This document shows, piece by piece, positions 3,800 to 45,919 of a stretch of DNA of 64,000 nucleotides (position 1 is its first letter; every line of letters starts with the position of its first letter). Under the pieces are notes generated by a model. It searched no databases. It saw nothing but the letters and a program-made list of their open reading frames with translations, and had not been told where the DNA came from. The stretch comes from Escherichia phage VTCCBPA_322. Location: sequence record PP989839.1, one strand, 5' to 3'. Made by a program: the position numbers and the translations under genes.

Positions 3800-5381
3800 G
3801 TTAATTAAACAGGAACTAGATGAATGGCTAGACCAGGTGGATTACTCCCACCTTAACTCATCTAACTATGTTCCTAGTCAGTTTGCTCTTACCTTTGCCA
3901 ACTTTATTAAGTTGGTTAATGGCAAAGAGGGTGAATCCAACAAAACACCGCCAGTCCATTTGAAGATGTTGGATAAGATGATTAGCCCGAACCAGTATGT
4001 AGTTAACCTGTGTTTCCGTGGTGCAGGTAAGACTGCCGTGTTCATGGAATACTTTACCCTGTTCCTGGCAGTGTTTGGGCACTTACCAAGTCTGGGTAAG
4101 GTAGAAGGAATGATTTATGTATCTGACTCAATGGATAACGGTGCTAAGTCTGCACGTAAGAACATTGAGTTTCGTTACAAGAATAGTGAGTTCCTTCAGC
4201 AGTGGATACCTGAAGCTACCTTTACGGATAACCTATTAGAGTTCCGTAATGTAGAAGGACATCGACTGGGTGTTAAGCTGTTTGGTGCTAAGACAGGTCT
4301 TCGTGGTACGAAGATATATGGTAAACGTCCAACACTCTGTGTACTGGATGACTTGATTAGCGATGGGGATGCTAACTCCAAGACTAGCATGGAAGCTATT
4401 AAAGACACCGTTTATAAAGGCGTGAACCATGCTCTTGACCCAACACGTCGTAAAGTAATCTTCAATGGTACTCCCTTTAATAAGGAAGATATTATCATTG
4501 AAGCAGTTGAGTCTGGTGCATGGGATGTTAACGTATGGCCTGTATGTGAGAAGTTCCCTTGTAGCAGAGAAGAATTTCAGGGTGCATGGGATGACCGATT
4601 CTCTTACGACTACATCAAAGCCCAGTATGATATGGCAGTTAAGACGGGTAAGTTGGCTGGCTTCTATCAGGAACTTATGCTTCGTATTAGCTCTGAAGAT
4701 GAGAGACTGGTTCAGGATAGTGAGATTAAATGGTATAGCAGACAGCAGCTACTAAGGATGAAGTCCTGCTACAACTATTATATTACAACTGACTTTGCTA
4801 CTTCGGAGAAACAGACTAGTGACTACAGTGTCATTTCAGTTTGGGCTTATAGTTCTAATGGAGATTGGTTCTGGGTTGATGGTGTGGCTAATCGTCAGCT
4901 TATGGATAAAAACTTCGATGACTTGTTCCGTCTGGTTCAGGAATACCAACCACAAAACGTTGGTGTCGAAATTACAGGTCAGCAGGGTGGATTCATCTCC
5001 CTTCTTCAGAAAGAAATGATTAACCGTAATGTCTTCTTTAACTTTGCATCTTCTGAAGGTGGTAAGCCAGGCATACGTCCTGTAACCTCTAAGCTGTCAC
5101 GCTTTAACCTAGTAGTTCCATGGTTCAAAGCTGGTAAGATGTACTTCCCGGAAGAGTTGAGAGATACAACTATTATGGGTCTGTTCATGGGCCAGATAAA
5201 ACTGGCTACCATTAATGGAATCAAAGGTAAGGATGACTGTATTGATACTATCTCCATGCTGGGATATCTCAACCCTTGGAAACCACAAGCAGGTATGACT
5301 ATGGTGGATAACAAGGGTGACCCTATGTGGGATGATGAAGAAGAAGATAGTGTTAACCCTCTACGTTCATATATTGTGTGA
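3792..5381 (+). CDS. terminase large subunit
   Basis: Walker A-like CFRGAGKTAV, Walker B-like LCVLDDLISD, acidic C-terminal nuclease-like region; ATG 3792 overlaps upstream stop (ATGTCTGA); track start 3771 is GTG. Confidence 0.8.
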   Translation: MSELIKQELDEWLDQVDYSHLNSSNYVPSQFALTFANFIKLVNGKEGESNKTPPVHLKMLDKMISPNQYVVNLCFRGAGKTAVFMEYFTLFLAVFGHLPSLGKVEGMIYVSDSMDNGAKSARKNIEFRYKNSEFLQQWIPEATFTDNLLEFRNVEGHRLGVKLFGAKTGLRGTKIYGKRPTLCVLDDLISDGDANSKTSMEAIKDTVYKGVNHALDPTRRKVIFNGTPFNKEDIIIEAVESGAWDVNVWPVCEKFPCSREEFQGAWDDRFSYDYIKAQYDMAVKTGKLAGFYQELMLRISSEDERLVQDSEIKWYSRQQLLRMKSCYNYYITTDFATSEKQTSDYSVISVWAYSSNGDWFWVDGVANRQLMDKNFDDLFRLVQEYQPQNVGVEITGQQGGFISLLQKEMINRNVFFNFASSEGGKPGIRPVTSKLSRFNLVVPWFKAGKMYFPEELRDTTIMGLFMGQIKLATINGIKGKDDCIDTISMLGYLNPWKPQAGMTMVDNKGDPMWDDEEEDSVNPLRSYIV

Positions 5382-9235: not shown

Positions 9236-11533
9236 ATGAACGAAATGTTCTCGCAAGGTGGCAAAGGCTCCACTGGTATTCTTACCAATAAGCAAGCTAT
9301 TGCCCGTCATTTTGGTATTAAGCAATCCGAGGTTCTTTACTTCTCTGTTGGTGCTGTATTAGATGGTTATAAAGTCATTTATGACAAGTCCACTCAAAGG
9401 AGTTATTCCTTACCTGCTGGTATTCCATCTGGCACTACTGCTATTAGTCTAAGCACTGCTGCTGTACTTGTACACTCAGCAGGCAGTGAGGACTTAGGTA
9501 CTTTGGCTGCTACTCGTAAGGAATTTATAACTAAGCAGGAGAACTTTAATACAGGCTTTACTATTAGTACCCATAATGAGCAAGTAGTTACTCCTGGTGG
9601 GGTTTACTACTGGGCAGGGTCTTTACCTAAAGTTGTACCTCCTGGTTCCTCTATTGAGGAAACTGGTGGGGTGAATGCTACTGCATGGGTTAATTCATAC
9701 TCCAATGCTGTCTTATGTATTAAGGATTTGCTGACACATCCACAGGGTGGCACAGTTAGTGTGGTTGGTTACATTTCTGGTACGGACTTTGGTGGTGGTG
9801 ATTTTTACTGGGATGCTACTCGTCCACGTAGTAAACATAATGGTATTACAGTATTCAGTCCTACTGTTCCATTTAGTGGTTTATATACGGATATACCGAA
9901 TTTCCATGCTAAGGTTGGAGAGACTGCACCTGATGCCAATGGTTGTTGGGTGCGTAAGGACTGTGGTCGTAAAGTTCTAATGTCATGGGGTGGTGTAGAT
10001 ATTTCAGGCACTCAGCCAATGGATGCCGTAGTAACAAGTATGTGTACTTATGTGCATAATACTCGTCAGATTTTGGATGCTGATGAGAATGCTGTACTTA
10101 AGGCAGGGTTTACTACCGGTACTCAGACCAAAGATAAGCACAATGTGTTTACCCAAGCTTCTGTAATCTTAGAGGGTAAGTATGTCACCATTCGTGGTAA
10201 TGGGGCTAAGATTGATACATATCACCCTGTCCACAGAGAACGTTCTGTATTTGTTCTTCGTAATGGTGGGTATAACATTTCTGGTTTTAAATGGAATGAT
10301 GGGTACACTGACTTTAGTACTTCCCCTACGGATACCCAGCACAAACAAGGTGAATGGTGGATGGGTATTGTTGCAGATGGTGCAGTTACTTTAGTAGCTG
10401 ACCACCATGAAGTAACTGCTTCTCAGGTATTTGTACGAGCAGATGCATTTAATGCTACGGACTGGAATGAAAGAGTAACTGTACGGTATAGTAAGTTTGA
10501 CTACATTACTAACTACTGTTTCCTTAGTCGTAAGCTGAAACATTATGAGTTCAGCTACAATGAGGTTAAACACAATGGCCGTGAGTGGCATACTTATGGG
10601 GAAGCATGTGCTCCAACCACATACACCACACATACTATTATACGTAGTAATAACTTCTTCAATCAGATCGCAGAACAATCCTGTATTACTCCTGGGTCAT
10701 ACCATAAGTCCTGTCTGATTGTTAATAACCATTGTGAACGCTATCGAGGCATTTTCGTTGAGATTGGTTCTTCCAGTAATATCAGCATTCTGAATAACTA
10801 CTCTTATTCCAGTGGTGAAAGGGATAGTTCTCATATCCTACTTGTATCTGGTGGGGTAGATGACGAACCAGAGGGTGGTTTGAATAACTTGTTGATTAAC
10901 GGTAATGTGTTTGAGAGTGGACCGTATACGCTGCGGGAGTACAACACTGGTACTCCAGTTCGCAGAGGCATTACATTCTCTAATAACCACATTATTGATT
11001 GCCCTATGCCTAATATGGGTAATGCTGCTTACCACTCAATGGCATTTACCAATAACTACTGCCAGCCACCAGCAGACTTCCCGTATCTGGTATGGGCAGG
11101 TAAGAATCCAATTATTGAAGGCAATACTTTTGTTGGTGGGGTTATTCGTGCTAGAGATCTGGGTTATACCATTACTAACCCAATCATTCGTAATAACGTA
11201 TTCCGTGATGGTAGTACTGTTCAGACATTCCCTGCATTAATTGATATGACTGACTTTACCCGTTTAGTTGCTGAGGGTAACGATGTAACTAATGCTACCT
11301 TTACTCGTGTAATTGTTGATCCAGCCAACTGTACTTCGGTCGGGTTTAAACGTATTGGGCAGGCAGAGGGTTTTGAATCTAACCCAGCTACCTTGTATGG
11401 TGCTAAACTTACGGATGTAATTAATGGTGATATTGTGATGAACAATAACCCAGGTAATGCTGAAGGTGGTTACGCATGGGTATGCGTAAATTCTGGTTCT
11501 AAACAATTTGGTAAAATTGTCGTAGCTGTGTAA
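9236..11533 (+). CDS. tailspike-like protein with predicted right-handed beta-helix (possible polysaccharide depolymerase)
   Basis: 765 aa; recurring N-N/G-N-x-F/I rungs (IRSNNFFNQ, LINGNVFESG, ITFSNNHIID, IIEGNTFVGG, IRNNVFRDG, AEGNDVTNATF) typical of pectate-lyase-like beta-helices. Confidence 0.55.
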   Translation: MNEMFSQGGKGSTGILTNKQAIARHFGIKQSEVLYFSVGAVLDGYKVIYDKSTQRSYSLPAGIPSGTTAISLSTAAVLVHSAGSEDLGTLAATRKEFITKQENFNTGFTISTHNEQVVTPGGVYYWAGSLPKVVPPGSSIEETGGVNATAWVNSYSNAVLCIKDLLTHPQGGTVSVVGYISGTDFGGGDFYWDATRPRSKHNGITVFSPTVPFSGLYTDIPNFHAKVGETAPDANGCWVRKDCGRKVLMSWGGVDISGTQPMDAVVTSMCTYVHNTRQILDADENAVLKAGFTTGTQTKDKHNVFTQASVILEGKYVTIRGNGAKIDTYHPVHRERSVFVLRNGGYNISGFKWNDGYTDFSTSPTDTQHKQGEWWMGIVADGAVTLVADHHEVTASQVFVRADAFNATDWNERVTVRYSKFDYITNYCFLSRKLKHYEFSYNEVKHNGREWHTYGEACAPTTYTTHTIIRSNNFFNQIAEQSCITPGSYHKSCLIVNNHCERYRGIFVEIGSSSNISILNNYSYSSGERDSSHILLVSGGVDDEPEGGLNNLLINGNVFESGPYTLREYNTGTPVRRGITFSNNHIIDCPMPNMGNAAYHSMAFTNNYCQPPADFPYLVWAGKNPIIEGNTFVGGVIRARDLGYTITNPIIRNNVFRDGSTVQTFPALIDMTDFTRLVAEGNDVTNATFTRVIVDPANCTSVGFKRIGQAEGFESNPATLYGAKLTDVINGDIVMNNNPGNAEGGYAWVCVNSGSKQFGKIVVAV

Positions 11534-11535
11534 AC

Positions 11536-11561
11536 GAAAGCCCCCAATTAAGGGGGCTTTT
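11536..11561. terminator. bidirectional terminator hairpin AAGCCCCC-AATTAA-GGGGGCTT
   Basis: 8-bp stem between convergent genes ending at 11533 (+) and 11563 (-); T-rich flank on the + side. Confidence 0.55.
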
Positions 11562-11562
11562 C

Positions 11563-11943
11563 CTATATGGAGTTCACTGTTTGCATTACCCTGACTGACA
11601 CTGATGTTAGGGTAATTACTTGACCTGAGATATTGAACATACCCAGCTGGATACCATCTACCATAAACGGGTCTGTTGAACCGAGTGTGTAAGTAGCTAA
11701 TACATTATCTCTGTTAGCAATGTCCGTACCTTGTACCTTAACACTAGCGTCTGAACCCACTATCGTAGTTCCATTGGTTCGCCTTGTTTGTGTTCTCCAT
11801 TCCCTAGCTGTACCAGCACCTCCTGCAATAGTTCCTGAGATACGTACACTAAACATTACCTGGGTATTTCTGGTTCTAACAGGAAACTTAAGATTACCCT
11901 CTTCAATTGTTAGTGCTGCTGTACCTCCAGGAGTTTTAGTCAT
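11563..11943 (-). CDS. hypothetical protein encoded antisense to the late operon
   Basis: Track ORF 11563-12012 starts at TTG; first ATG at 11943 gives 126 aa (MTKTPGGTAALTIEEG...); rich in AGA/AGG/CGA/ATA/CTA codons unlike core genes. Confidence 0.4.
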   Translation of the reverse strand: MTKTPGGTAALTIEEGNLKFPVRTRNTQVMFSVRISGTIAGGAGTAREWRTQTRRTNGTTIVGSDASVKVQGTDIANRDNVLATYTLGSTDPFMVDGIQLGMFNISGQVITLTSVSVRVMQTVNSI

Positions 11944-12032
11944 GCCTGGTAAAGCAAAGTAATTGAACCAGGACTGGTCATTTACTGCCTGGTTCCCTGT
12001 CCACGTATACAAGTCCAGAAGGAAAGTATCTT

Positions 12033-12188
12033 CTAACTCGGTTGGGGGAAAGGTAGCAGTTCTGGTGGGATCTCTGAGATGTTATTAGCAGAAACTATTC
12101 GTTCCCCATAACTTCCCACGACCAACAATCCTCCCTTCATTTTGCATACAACATCCTTACCACTTTGGAAAATATCTTTAATAGACAT
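12033..12188 (-). CDS. small hypothetical protein
   Basis: ATG 12188 with GAGGT SD; MSIKDIFQSGKDVVCKMKGG...; upstream of the 126-aa gene on the same strand. Confidence 0.25.
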   Translation of the reverse strand: MSIKDIFQSGKDVVCKMKGGLLVVGSYGERIVSANNISEIPPELLPFPQPS

Positions 12189-12312
12189 AGTTACCTCGCA
12201 GTCGATACCAGACACTATGTCTGGATGTATTCCATCATACTAAGTATTATCTAAGAGTCATCTTATGATACGACCCTATTGGGGTTCCTAACTTTACAAC
12301 TACGGTAATATT

Positions 12313-12642
12313 ATGAATGAATCGGGTGAACTGCTTCTAGTCAGACTGGAGGAACGATTGAAGACTCTGTTTGAGAACCAGACAAGGGACAGGCAGGACC
12401 GTGAGAAACTGGAGGAAACTCTGGGAGAACTACGGGATTCAATCAATGACATAGGCAATAGACTAAAGAATGTGGAGGATAGCTTAGCTAAGAATGAACC
12501 TACTATTGAAGAGTTCATCACCATTAAGCATAAGGTCGTTGGTGCCGGAATTTTTGGTAAGTGGGTATGGGCTGGGGCAGGTGCAATTATCGGGGTACTG
12601 GCTGCTGCAAGACGGGAGATATTCGCATGGTTCGCAGGCTAA
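12313..12642 (+). CDS. lysis-cassette membrane protein (coiled-coil N-terminus, C-terminal TM helix; holin or antiholin candidate)
   Basis: 109 aa; charged heptad-like N-terminal region then VVGAGIFGKWVWAGAGAIIGVLAAA; first gene of the lysis cluster. Confidence 0.4.
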   Translation: MNESGELLLVRLEERLKTLFENQTRDRQDREKLEETLGELRDSINDIGNRLKNVEDSLAKNEPTIEEFITIKHKVVGAGIFGKWVWAGAGAIIGVLAAARREIFAWFAG

Positions 12643-37382: not shown

Positions 37383-37440
37383 TATTAGCCTCATAGAGTG
37401 GTTTTAGTGTGTGCTTAAACATGATTACGTTTATTAATAC

Positions 37441-37480
37441 TCAAATAAAAAAGTCCCCCAGAGTGACGGCTCCAGGGGAC
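37441..37480 (-). terminator. intrinsic terminator on - strand (GTCCCC/GGGGAC stem, then TTTTTTATTT)
   Basis: 6-bp GC stem 37453-37458/37475-37480 with 16-nt loop; strong U-run in - orientation; closes the ORF-poor RNA region. Confidence 0.5.
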
Positions 37481-38265
37481 TTAGTACTATTTACCCATAG
37501 CTGGGAGGCTTTTGGTTCTTACCACGAAGACAGTCCACGCTGACTAGGCTTGGGATTGATAGTCCCGTTCCTGTGGTAATTACTCAGGCTAGGATTTAAG
37601 GAGTTCCTATTCTCCAGCGAAATTCCCGTCGAGGGGAATAACAATACAATAGCAGCCACTGGACTGTCTTACCAGTGTTGTCTTTAGAGTGCTGTGCAAT
37701 CAGGACTATGTTACTGCTAAATAGGTGAGTCATGCCAGGCTCTAACTGGCTCCTTCTTCGCAATCCTTACATACCCCTACATAATTATTGCGTTAAGCTT
37801 TTTTGTTTAAGTTTAAGTGAAGGCGTTCTTGCTGACTCATAATTAGGTTGGGCGTTTGACGAATGACTAGTTCGTTACTACCCGTTTGCCATAAGTACCT
37901 GGCGACTTTGGTTTGAGGTGGGAGTCCGAGTCCTGTACAGCCTTACCGTTCACACATTGGCAGCGTATCTAGAATAGCACTTCCGGCAACTGGATTTAAC
38001 TGTTACACCTCAAATCTGGTAGGGGCGTCCAGAAGTCTCATCTGGTACTTACGCCGTCGTATGGTTACGACTTACCCCCATTGTTAGTTGCTCGGCTCAC
38101 CCCCTCGACTAAAGTGACCTTTGAGGGGCTACGCTACACTATGTGTTTCATCCCATTACAGAGAATCATCAGGCGTATTAGTTGGTCACCCCGGATACCT
38201 ACTTACCGAGCATTGGTATCGTATGACTCTTCCAATTAGAAGTAGCACTGTTGCAGTCGTCACTG

Positions 38266-38337
38266 CCCATAGGTAAGGACTCGAACCTTACAATACCATT
38301 GGTTTACAATGTCGCTGTACCATTTCGCGTTCTATGC
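38266..38337 (-). ncRNA. tRNA-like element a (possible degenerate tRNA)
   Basis: T-arm TAAGG-TTCGAGT-CCTTA then CCTATGG; 5' partner GCATAGA gives only 5 of 7 acceptor pairs; internal CATTG-TAAAC-CAATG hairpin has a 5-nt loop; no canonical anticodon loop found. Confidence 0.3.
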
Positions 38338-38352
38338 AATGCTACTTTGAAT

Positions 38353-38476
38353 TGGTTATCAGTGAAGGATTCGAACCTCCGGTTGGAGTCTATAGCTTAC
38401 CGCAGCAGCCCTCCAATCTAGCGGTGTCACACTTAGTCCAAACTTGAACATGTCAAGCCATCTCGTGCAACTGATA
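38353..38476 (-). ncRNA. tRNA-like structured RNA b (124 nt; exact acceptor stem, T-arm, encoded CCA)
   Basis: 5' TATCAGT pairs exactly with 3' ACTGATA; T-arm GGAGG-TTCGAAT-CCTTC; discriminator A and CCA encoded (38353-38355 as TGG on +); too long for a canonical tRNA. Confidence 0.4.
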
Positions 38477-38478
38477 AT

Positions 38479-38606
38479 TGGTTCCAGGAGAAGGAATCGA
38501 ACCTCCAAGTCAGGCCGTGAACCCTGACTATATCACCTACACTTAGTAGGCTTACTCTAACTGCTGCGCATTACATTAAAGCTATACCTAGTGTTGATAT
38601 CCTGGA
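38479..38606 (-). ncRNA. tRNA-like structured RNA c (128 nt; exact acceptor stem, T-arm, encoded CCA)
   Basis: 5' TCCAGGA pairs exactly with 3' TCCTGGA; T-arm GGAGG-TTCGATT-CCTTC; discriminator A + CCA; 2-nt spacer to element b; internal hairpins CCTAC-TAAGT-GTAGG and GTCAGG-GTTCACGG-CCTGAC. Confidence 0.4.
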
Positions 38607-39240
38607 ATTGGAGTTGCCAGGGATTCCACCTGGCTCCATCTGTTTTTATAGTCACTCAGATATCGTCTGGACTCTTTACTGTGGGCTGTACCGACTACTT
38701 AGAATAACTACGGCAAAGATTATTCCACAGCTTACATTGATGGTACAACCCATCAAAGAGTACACTAGCACTGGGCCACGCATAAGTGGGCATCGGCCTT
38801 CCTCCCACAGCTAATCTACTAATGTACTCATTGATAGGATGTCATAATAGGAGGGAGGGGACGAATCCTCCCTTTATACCCTATGTTGCATGTAAGACCT
38901 AACATCTCGATGTTGTATAAATAGCGTAATGAACTATCCGACATTATTGGTTAATGTTGTGCTCAACATGAGCGTTAGTTGATAAGGGATCTGAAGCCTT
39001 ATCCTAAAGATTCTAACCTTTGGGATATAGCCTAAGATTCAGAAATGGCCCCTATAGGGAGAGGCCATTGATTAACCCGAATGTTGCTTTACATTTTCTG
39101 TAATAACCAATTCTTAAAATAGTCTGTCTGACGGATGGGGGGCCACCCCTAGCGTCAGTGCCATACGGCAAAGATTAAGTTAAGAAAGGTTATGATAGGA
39201 GTTCCTATCTCAAAGGATTCTAACAGAACCCTTCACGATA

Positions 39241-39411
39241 TTAACTACTCTTTTTTAATGCCTTTACTTCACCATCTTTATACCAAGCATACGGTATTAA
39301 GATTTTGCATCCTTCCGAATCAATGTGGAATGCTTTTTTTCCTTCAGCAGGTTCTCCACCCACGAAAGAACTAACCTTTCCATTGAGCCAGTGAATAGTA
39401 AATTTGTTCAT
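39241..39411 (-). CDS. small hypothetical protein (56 aa)
   Basis: ATG 39411, TAA 39243-39241; MNKFTIHWLNGKVSSFVGGEPAEGKKAFHIDSEGCKILIPYAWYKDGEVKALKKSS; below track cutoff; just upstream of the RNA cluster. Confidence 0.3.
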   Translation of the reverse strand: MNKFTIHWLNGKVSSFVGGEPAEGKKAFHIDSEGCKILIPYAWYKDGEVKALKKSS

Positions 39412-39642
39412 GCTAACCCCGTTTGAACCAATCCCCTTCGGAGAGTATTAAAGGGGACTGGTTCGGTTGTTGTTATTCTGGCGGCTTGTCACCACCGTGT
39501 TTACCACTGCATTTCCACAGGATAATGACAGTGATGATAAAAGCTATGTATGGAGCCGACACGTCTATAATTCTGACCAGTAGTAGCATCAGGACTATAA
39601 ACACTACCACACCTAGCAGCAGCTTCTGAGCCACCTACCAGA

Positions 39643-44442: not shown

Positions 44443-45419
44443 GATGGAAAATATCTCTCTCTTTGTTTGCAAATGGTAGCGACAGGGCAGTATAAACAAC
44501 GCTTAACCTGCCCCTCCACGACCTTGATAGCACCTTTGCCACCTTTTTCAGCCATGAAGATACGAGCAGATGCCATATCGTCAAAGTTTTTGGTACTTCT
44601 GGCTCCGGGTACATCTACCTTAGAAGCGTCAGAGAAGTATTTGAACTGTGGCTCTGTTCGCCACAACTCCTCATCAGTACATTCAGGAATTTCCTCTTCA
44701 GGAGCATCCCAGTACTTTTCAATGAGGTGAATCTTCTCTTCTACCCAACGTTCAGTCTTCTCGACAGATAGCAGCGGAATATCCTTATGCATAATACGAT
44801 TAGCAGGATAGTTCGGGTTGCTACTAGCCATGTGCTTCATGAAGTCAGTGAAGATGTAGTTAATACGAATTACATCCTCAGTAATGATGTCGTTGTGAAT
44901 CCAACGGTACAAGCTGCCTTGCATCTTGTGTTCATCATCACGGGAACCAGCAACCCAAGAATAGGTTGAGGTAGACTTAAAGTCTTGCAACAGACCTTCA
45001 GTTACGATGTCGAACTTACCACCGATAGTCCAACCCTTAACTACTCTGGTTCCACGTTGTTCAATGTAGATTGGGATAAGGTCAGGGTTAGCATCAAAGT
45101 CTGCTTTGGTTGGGTTAATGACTACTGCATCAATTACTCGCTGAGGATAACCCAACTTTTTCAATGCAGTCTTATGGCCTAACTTCCAGGCTTTCTCAAT
45201 AGAATCGTGTAAGCCAGTACCCATTGATGTGGAGACGAAATCCATAACATCAATGGATTGTTCACTGAGATCTACGCGATGCTTCATGACGATTTGCTTA
45301 ATGGGTTTAAGCAATGTAGTAGCAGACAAGTACTTAGGATTGTCTACATAATCATACTCGTCATGCAATAGCCATACAGCCAAAGCCAGCGAGACATCAT
45401 GGTTGTTGGTTATCTTCAT
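44439..45419 (-). CDS. PD-(D/E)xK family nuclease with C-terminal cysteine cluster (RecB/Cas4-like)
   Basis: 326 aa; GKFDIVTEGLLQDFKST resembles a D...(E/Q)xK core; C-terminus CLYCPVATICKQRE has three Cys. Confidence 0.4.
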   Translation of the reverse strand: MKITNNHDVSLALAVWLLHDEYDYVDNPKYLSATTLLKPIKQIVMKHRVDLSEQSIDVMDFVSTSMGTGLHDSIEKAWKLGHKTALKKLGYPQRVIDAVVINPTKADFDANPDLIPIYIEQRGTRVVKGWTIGGKFDIVTEGLLQDFKSTSTYSWVAGSRDDEHKMQGSLYRWIHNDIITEDVIRINYIFTDFMKHMASSNPNYPANRIMHKDIPLLSVEKTERWVEEKIHLIEKYWDAPEEEIPECTDEELWRTEPQFKYFSDASKVDVPGARSTKNFDDMASARIFMAEKGGKGAIKVVEGQVKRCLYCPVATICKQRERYFPS

Positions 45420-45919
45420 CAGTAGTTAATCCTGTATTTAAGTACACGGTTCCACTGTATTTCACGTAAATTTGAATAGGAGTAAATATACTTCCTATCC
45501 AGTTCCGTCTTATAAACAACTTCAATGGAAGTAAACTTTTTGGTGAAGTACGGATGGCCACTACCTAAGTAATGCCAGCATCCACCAATAGTAGATATGT
45601 CTGGCGGAGTCTCTGTACCTTTTTCTTTAGCTACTTCTTCACTCTCCTTAGCAAATAAAAGCGCTTTAGCTAATAGTCGGTTTGAGTAGTGAACTAACTT
45701 CTCGCAGTCATACACTGGAGTATTTCCAGGTTTACCATTACCCATACGGGCAGCAGCATTTCGCCATAGAGCTTTAAAGGCACAACCTTCATCGAAGGTC
45801 ATGCCCAGTGCCTGGATAATATCCTCGCACTCTGCTTGGTATGGCTCTTGCTCTTTCCGTTGGGGGTTCTTAACTGGTACTACATACCAGTTATTCAATC
45901 CACCGGAGAGCTTAGTCAT
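45419..45919 (-). CDS. hypothetical protein (possibly DUF3310-like)
   Basis: 166 aa; AFKALWRNAAARMGNGKPG...YDCEKLVHYSNRLL loosely resembles a common phage domain; low certainty. Confidence 0.3.
   Translation of the reverse strand: MTKLSGGLNNWYVVPVKNPQRKEQEPYQAECEDIIQALGMTFDEGCAFKALWRNAAARMGNGKPGNTPVYDCEKLVHYSNRLLAKALLFAKESEEVAKEKGTETPPDISTIGGCWHYLGSGHPYFTKKFTSIEVVYKTELDRKYIYSYSNLREIQWNRVLKYRINY

Follow-up and report, generated by a model that had tools for sequence, protein, structure and literature searches.

Two short minus-strand open reading frames (ORFs) between the tailspike gene and the lysis cassette are, on alignment with related phages, one conserved phage gene, interrupted where a C-run is one base short. 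We best explain its product as a dispensable accessory fibre, transcribed separately, anchored on the capsid and ending in a ligand-binding knob, its one gene being frameshifted in this genome; we put the probability of this reading at roughly 0.55.

One gene in two frames

The window (the whole 64-kb stretch of DNA that was analysed) comes from a Gamaleyavirus, a G7C/N4-like coliphage of the Schitoviridae, as judged by megablast and by comparison with annotated relatives. Its identity to phages pSb-1, Bp4, nithesis and the UE phages is about 90% in megablast of the window. The plus strand carries the late and structural genes, namely terminase, a gp66-like tail protein, the tailspike, the gp63-holin-endolysin-Rz cassette, portal, capsid protein and a 3576-residue vRNAP, and the minus strand carries the replication and middle genes. 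The preliminary description had placed here two minus-strand ORFs (12188-12033 and 11943-11563), convergent with the tailspike gene that ends at 11533 and before the lysis cassette that starts at 12313. Both ORFs are present and so arranged: they sit upstream of the gp63 cassette, which is divergent from them.

The lysis cassette is headed by a 109-residue gp63 homologue (12313-12642; phrog_5211, a family of unknown function), which is a short coiled-coil protein ending in a hydrophobic segment. In relatives this protein is labelled 'tail length tape-measure protein' or 'tail needle protein gp26', and both labels look like annotation errors. At the start of the window, six small minus-strand ORFs (96-132 aa) occupy 791-2938, upstream of and divergent from the late operon, in the position of gp70-72 at the right end of the N4 genome; one of them (2049-2447) matches phrog_9160, of unknown function. 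The 790 bp before this block hold no ORF and contain a perfect hairpin, ACATGC-GGA-GCATGT (311-325), with a 6-bp stem and a GGA triloop, which resembles the N4 virion-RNA-polymerase hairpin promoters. Its direction would be leftward, that of the early genes, were the plus strand the template. Finally, in the minus-strand early/middle region, a greedy ORF map gives only short plus-strand ORFs of 52-68 aa at 37400-39640 and 44500-45420, stretches that are probably made up of many very small minus-strand genes.

What had been described as a two-gene island is a single continuous 627-nt gene in nithesis, UE-S5b and Bp4, and DNA alignment shows the split locus of the window to be collinear with these intact genes over its full length. 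An unbroken gene of 208 codons is present in Bp4, pSb-1, nithesis and the UE phages, and the annotation of relatives gives a single gene of 208-217 codons at this locus. In the alignment with nithesis, UE-S5b and Bp4, the window differs by a 1-nt deletion on the minus strand, from CCTTTCCC[A]CCAAC to CCTTTCCCCCAAC; at this site the window reads CCTTTCCCCCAACC and the relatives read CCTTTCCCACCAAC. Restoring one base gives a 208-residue protein that is 91-95% identical to the proteins of the relatives and matches phrog_17779, a Schitoviridae family of unknown function, at E 4e-115 over profile positions 4-207 of 208; each unrepaired half matches only its own section of that profile. The preliminary description had proposed to check the locus by homology and synteny, and both gave positive answers, with this profile match, 45 close homologues of the gene product in a large protein collection, and a gene at the same locus in relatives.

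The 5' frame, which an upstream GTG start would extend to 60 aa, ends in three out-of-frame residues and a TAG stop. The larger ORF can be read as 126 aa from an ATG (11943-11563) or as 149 aa from a TTG (12012-11563). It had been taken for a gene with its own ATG start, a claim that does not hold: the ATG at 11943 is an Ile codon in all relatives, and a convincing Shine-Dalgarno sequence is absent.

Table 1. Features of the frameshifted locus and its surroundings, in window coordinates.
Feature	Position	Strand	Remarks
Tailspike gene, 765 aa	9236-11533	+	convergent with the minus-strand knob gene
Bidirectional intrinsic terminator	11536..11561	.	G+C-rich hairpin, common to the tailspike and knob genes
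Whole putative accessory fibre-knob gene	11563..12188	-	208 codons after restoring one base; frameshift-split here
3' frame	11563..12047	-	Pro-rich linker and predicted TNF/C1q-like knob, residues ~55-206 of the repaired protein
5' frame, 51 aa from ATG	12033..12188	-	residues 1-48 are the authentic N-terminal module
Deletion site, C5 run (G5 on plus strand)	12044..12048	-	alignment gap column
Shine-Dalgarno sequence GAGG	12194..12197	-	5 nt before the ATG at 12188; invariant in relatives
Perfect palindrome CCAGACA-CTA-TGTCTGG	12208..12224	.	predicted mRNA 5' end; invariant in relatives
Sigma-70-like promoter candidate ATGACT-16 nt-TATGAT	12234..12261	-	consensus match 9/12

Comparison of the repaired gene with its relatives gave dN/dS of 0.05-0.10 at dS of 0.41-0.47 in both halves, the differences being mostly synonymous. 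With the phrog_17779 match and the 45 homologues, these values argue for a genuine gene over an ORF that arose by chance, and for purifying selection on it until very recently. Such strong selection means that the break is either recent or a homopolymer error of sequencing or assembly. If it is an error, the real phage would have an intact, functional 208-codon gene with the function that we propose. We find this doubtful, but it stays a serious rival, because the frameshift allele was found in no collection: exact look-up of both ORFs and pattern scans of IMG/VR and the JGI metagenomes for C5 or C6 gave no identical allele elsewhere. The missing base lies inside the C5 run, where a synonymous CCA-to-CCC change would give a C6 run that is easily under-called; if one C were then lost, whether in the phage or during sequencing, exactly the observed sequence would result. 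The repaired gene has no relaxed constraint, its remaining sequence is undecayed, and an ACA-to-ACC change beside the deletion is synonymous in the restored frame only. Against an error, no gene elsewhere in the window looks broken, and the roughly 60 other genes that are intact, including the 10.7-kb vRNAP ORF, imply a low assembly error rate; natural loss of the gene is also common among relatives. In our best reading, the break leaves the gene with little or no activity here. The frameshift would leave a 51-residue anchor-only peptide, and full-length protein would appear in traces at most, by -1 slippage on the sequence U_UUC_CCC.

An N-terminal module shared with phage B2 gp45 and a C-terminal knob

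The intact protein is built from two modules, an N-terminal one with a homologue of solved structure and a C-terminal knob, joined by a Pro-rich linker. Among solved structures, the family profile matches one, chain J of PDB 9d82 ("B2 Dec Gp45"), with E 5e-5 across residues 1-47. Alignment of the N-terminal module with gp45 by hhalign gives a probability of 95.5% and E 1.6e-8 and, reciprocally, residues 1-46 of gp45 match phrog_17779. Gp45 of Shigella phage B2 is a 99-residue homotrimeric capsid decoration protein that was modelled by cryo-EM at quasi-sixfold positions, the hexamer centres (PMC11654681). Its neighbour on the same strand, B2 gp46, is orthologous to the window gene over its full length, with 54% identity, and, since the N-terminal module is common to both, gp45 and gp46 are tandem paralogues.

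The two proteins of B2 differ in what follows this module. Residues 55-99 of gp45 match the last 45 positions of PF11133, the phi29 head-fibre family, a match that neither the window protein nor B2 gp46 gave in the Pfam search. The corresponding region of phi29 gp8.5 is the distal tip; the C-terminus of gp45 would then be tip-like and the shared N-terminus the capsid-proximal anchor. From this we infer that the shared module is the capsid-binding part. The window protein thus resembles gp45 in its N-terminal ~47 residues and in being encoded by a small gene opposite the tail genes and beside the tailspike gene, and differs from it in carrying a TNF-like knob of 150 residues in place of a phi29-head-fibre-like tail of 50. 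A profile search with the N-terminal module alone (50 residues, a short query for the size of the database) returned only truncated alleles of the same gene.

Some observations weigh against a place on the capsid. In B2, gp45 was seen on particles and gp46, the orthologue of the window gene, was not, being absent from the virion mass-spectrometry table (Table 1) of PMC11654681. Moreover, B2 belongs to the Humphriesvirinae, whose scheme of capsid decoration differs from that of the Enquatrovirinae; relatives in the latter group have an Ig-like decoration protein (Moo19 gp28) at the same hexamer site, which may therefore be occupied. For FSL SP-058 and SP-076, Moreno Switt 2013 contains no proteomics.

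Monomer structure prediction folds the C-terminus of the repaired protein into a ten-strand TNF/C1q-like jelly-roll of the Sf6 tail-needle-knob type, the tail-needle knob also being the closest solved fold. The repaired protein had no match in Pfam (E up to 10), NCBIfam (E up to 1) or PADLOC, and a CHRD match on the 149-aa ORF was discarded as marginal at E 0.083. A search with the knob domain among 1.84 billion representative proteins gave 196 clusters. In every match listed, the domain lies at the extreme C-terminus, in proteins of 170-900 residues, where its N-terminal partners are collagen Gly-X-Y repeats, phage tail-fibre repeats, a GDSL esterase or a CBM5/12 module. Fusion to collagen repeats (P0041 and P0042) implies that the knob forms trimers. 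In other phage families, the homologue belongs to structural modules: it comes after four tail-fibre genes in ZPAH14 (a collagen-knob protein), has the portal gene on one side and protease/capsid genes on the other in PAT1, and adjoins the terminase and lysis genes in CLB_P1 and Kp_H01. The existing labels of the family, 'protease', 'tail needle knob' and 'hypothetical', are unfounded or half right. In the Salmonella and CLB_P1 homologues, 'protease' goes back to an E. coli prophage protein, similar to them and labelled 'predicted protease', and the fold lends it no support.

Putting these modules together, we infer a location on the capsid, a trimeric state, a ligand and a benefit for the phage. 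The N-terminal 47 residues would dock a trimer onto the capsid surface, from which the linker and then the TNF-like knob would project outward. The knob would bind a surface ligand, probably a glycan, and this binding would serve as a weak, reversible attachment that aids adsorption. Such a role has been proposed for the phi29 head fibres, T4 Hoc and the side tail fibres of lambda.

Expression, gene loss and tailspike exchange

Read as a late gene, the knob gene would be transcribed alone, from a promoter in the divergent region at 12225-12312 to the terminator that it shares with the tailspike gene, probably by the host RNA polymerase as for the late genes of N4. As N4 has no gene at this position, the knob gene is an added transcription unit. 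The candidate promoter is invariant in relatives, although in a consensus scan its 9/12 match is at chance frequency, and it would start the mRNA about 3 nt before the palindrome. In RNA folding, the 5' arm of the palindrome alternatively joins a 9-bp pairing over the start codon (minimum free energy -16.3 kcal/mol, z -2.5), so that a choice between the two structures may exert translational control; the palindrome/start-codon region is invariant and hence without covariation. With a 7-bp stem and a 3-nt loop, the palindrome also has the dimensions of an N4 vRNAP hairpin promoter (stem of 5-7 bp, loop of 3 nt, purine at the centre of the template-strand loop). It was rejected as such, the template loop CTA having a pyrimidine at its centre. 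An Rfam scan of 11300-12600 gave chance-level matches only.

The preliminary description had the locus bounded by a bidirectional terminator, which is right for its 3' side. The hairpin there is flanked by T-runs left and right and can form on either strand, at -18.0 and -17.6 kcal/mol (z -3.4 and -3.6), as a bidirectional terminator should; the 5' side is instead the divergent promoter region. This region (12208-12312) is near-invariant in relatives, more conserved than the flanking coding DNA, and it is kept with its palindrome in ECBP1 and St11Ph5 despite deletion of the knob gene. It is therefore likely to control the gp63-lysis-portal transcript as well.

The internal deletions of ECBP1 and St11Ph5 differ from each other, and each leaves the promoter region, the last 55-130 nt of the gene and the terminator. 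On two contigs, L026 (70.9 kb) and L027 (coverage 15.8), the 5' 340-410 nt are kept and the sequence then diverges, and further truncated or fused alleles occur in P0032, P0036 and P0043. Absence from N4 and the variety of deletions among relatives mark the gene as dispensable, as far as genome comparison can tell.

A remnant of the gene is found in another phage family. In the Agtrevirus myophages SKML-39 and PC3 (Ackermannviridae), its final ~80 codons are still present, without annotation, immediately after the last tailspike gene, with 90-95% amino-acid identity. The terminator and this ~80-codon scar correspond to 11531-11830 in the window, 4969-5263 in SKML-39 (L008) and 4969-5279 in PC3 (L009), at 82-86% nucleotide identity. 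The last Agtrevirus tailspike has only its N-terminal ~140-200 residues in common with the window tailspike. Among the closest relatives, too, only residues 1-~140 of the window tailspike, the TSP1/gp66-type N-terminal domain, match their tailspikes. The beta-helix body had no match among the related loci compared, which indicates that the receptor-binding part was acquired separately; the exact 765-residue protein was absent from a collection of 15 billion sequences.

Since the flanks are conserved, the tailspike body would be exchanged between two arms of homology, the N-terminal domain on one side and the terminator with the 3' end of the knob gene on the other. The flanks look like homology arms for the exchange of tailspike cassettes across phage families, judging by these alignments. 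The knob gene lies at the edge of the exchanged cassette, and crossovers inside it would damage it collaterally, which explains why it is so often truncated, deleted or reduced to a scar. The gene had been described as adjacent to a mosaic host-range module, and it is indeed physically tied to the mosaic tailspike module.

This linkage bears on whether the protein is a tail accessory, an additional receptor-binding knob docked to the tailspike or to the adaptor complex, and not a head fibre. The gene is always convergent with and beside a tailspike that bears a TSP1/gp66-type N-terminal domain, in Gamaleyavirus, in the Ithacavirus B2 and at the Agtrevirus scar; the nearest solved fold and the neighbourhood in ZPAH14 also point to the tail. 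The recombination arms, however, explain the linkage to the tailspike, the homologue of PAT1 has portal and protease/capsid genes for neighbours, and B2 gp45, the sole relative of the N-terminal module whose position is known from experiment, lies on the capsid. A tail accessory is the chief alternative as to location, but on balance unlikely.

Slippage, known systems and significance

The deletion creates, exactly at the junction of the two frames, a legitimate slippery heptamer, U_UUC_CCC, of the X_XXY_YYZ type. A -1 slip on it restores the ancestral peptide exactly, and a hairpin of -9.3 kcal/mol begins 5 nt downstream. Motifs of the kind U_UU.C_CC.N are measurably, if weakly, shifty in E. 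coli (PMC4066793). In a speculative reading, which we think very unlikely, the 47-residue module would be a universal capsid anchor with swappable heads, a phi29-type tip in gp45 and a TNF-like lectin knob in the window gene. These would form a second, interchangeable class of N4-like capsid fibre, and the frameshift-prone C-runs of the proline linker would serve, if crudely, to turn the fibre on and off or to set its dosage, by slip-strand mutation or by -1 slippage of the ribosome on the heptamer. If this were true, a lytic population would keep fibre-bearing and bare-capsid particles for different environments.

That the split is itself functional, with -1 frameshifting setting a ratio of anchor-only to full-length protein or with C-run slippage turning the gene on and off in the population, is highly improbable. 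Shuffled sequences fold as well as the downstream hairpin (z -0.6), which is also present in the unshifted relatives, and none of the relatives carries the frameshift, all well-covered ones that span the site reading continuously. Both points make programmed frameshifting unlikely, and phase variation by slippage would need a run longer than C5 to be efficient. Other frameshifted alleles were found only on contigs with coverage below 0.5; those of P0048 and P0051 (coverage 0.48 and 0.19) had suggested recurrent slippage but were set aside.

The preliminary description had favoured an acquired opposite-strand insert, a moron that modifies the receptor or excludes other phages. The first half of this stands in part. 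Like phage morons, the gene is inserted on the opposite strand between genes that are adjacent in N4, is deleted in ECBP1 and St11Ph5, and has a convincing terminator and a candidate promoter; its codons are atypical, AGA, AGG, CGA, ATA and CTA making up 8.1% of those in the larger ORF and 0-4.6% in 12 core genes, as had been noted, at an ordinary G+C of 0.43. A non-structural function is, in contrast, hardly credible: PADLOC, NCBIfam and Pfam gave no match to a defence or exclusion family, the sequence shows no evident signal peptide or membrane segment, a strictly lytic phage has no prophage state in which a moron could act, and fold, domain architecture, homology and neighbourhoods are those of virion surface fibres.

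Returning to the accessory fibre that we favour, its closest parallels are the TNF/C1q-like fibre heads, compared here through the Sf6/HS1 tail needle knob (PDB 3rwn, 4k6b), PRD1 P5, BclA, C1q and the TNF-like lectins PLTL and BC2L-C. As in these, the knob stands at the distal C-terminus and homologues carry it on collagen-like stalks, in the manner of C1q and BclA. It differs from them in a sequence identity of only 8-19% and in having no Pfam membership, its trimer would be a putative one, and the module that would attach it at the N-terminus has no relation to the gp26 needle of P22/Sf6. With phi29 gp8.5, T4 Hoc and lambda Stf it would share the character of a non-essential, often lost surface protein, although its fold is unrelated to the Ig fold of Hoc or to the gp8.5 stalk. 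The stf gene of laboratory lambda PaPa is inactivated by a single-base frameshift, like the window gene.

The knob gene is thus an ordinary accessory gene, probably structural, and not a new system, and a specialist would not be much surprised by it; the assignment of a function to phrog_17779 and the observation of the recombination arms are modestly new. An annotation trap is corrected, in that two short 'antisense ORFs' are one broken gene, and phrog_17779 gains a candidate function as a modular, capsid-anchored fibre with a lectin-type knob. In therapeutic N4-like coliphages, such a fibre may have an influence on adsorption, on host range or on persistence at mucosal surfaces. As a putative arm of exchange between Schitoviridae and Ackermannviridae, the knob-gene 3' end with its terminator would be useful for understanding and engineering host-range swaps.
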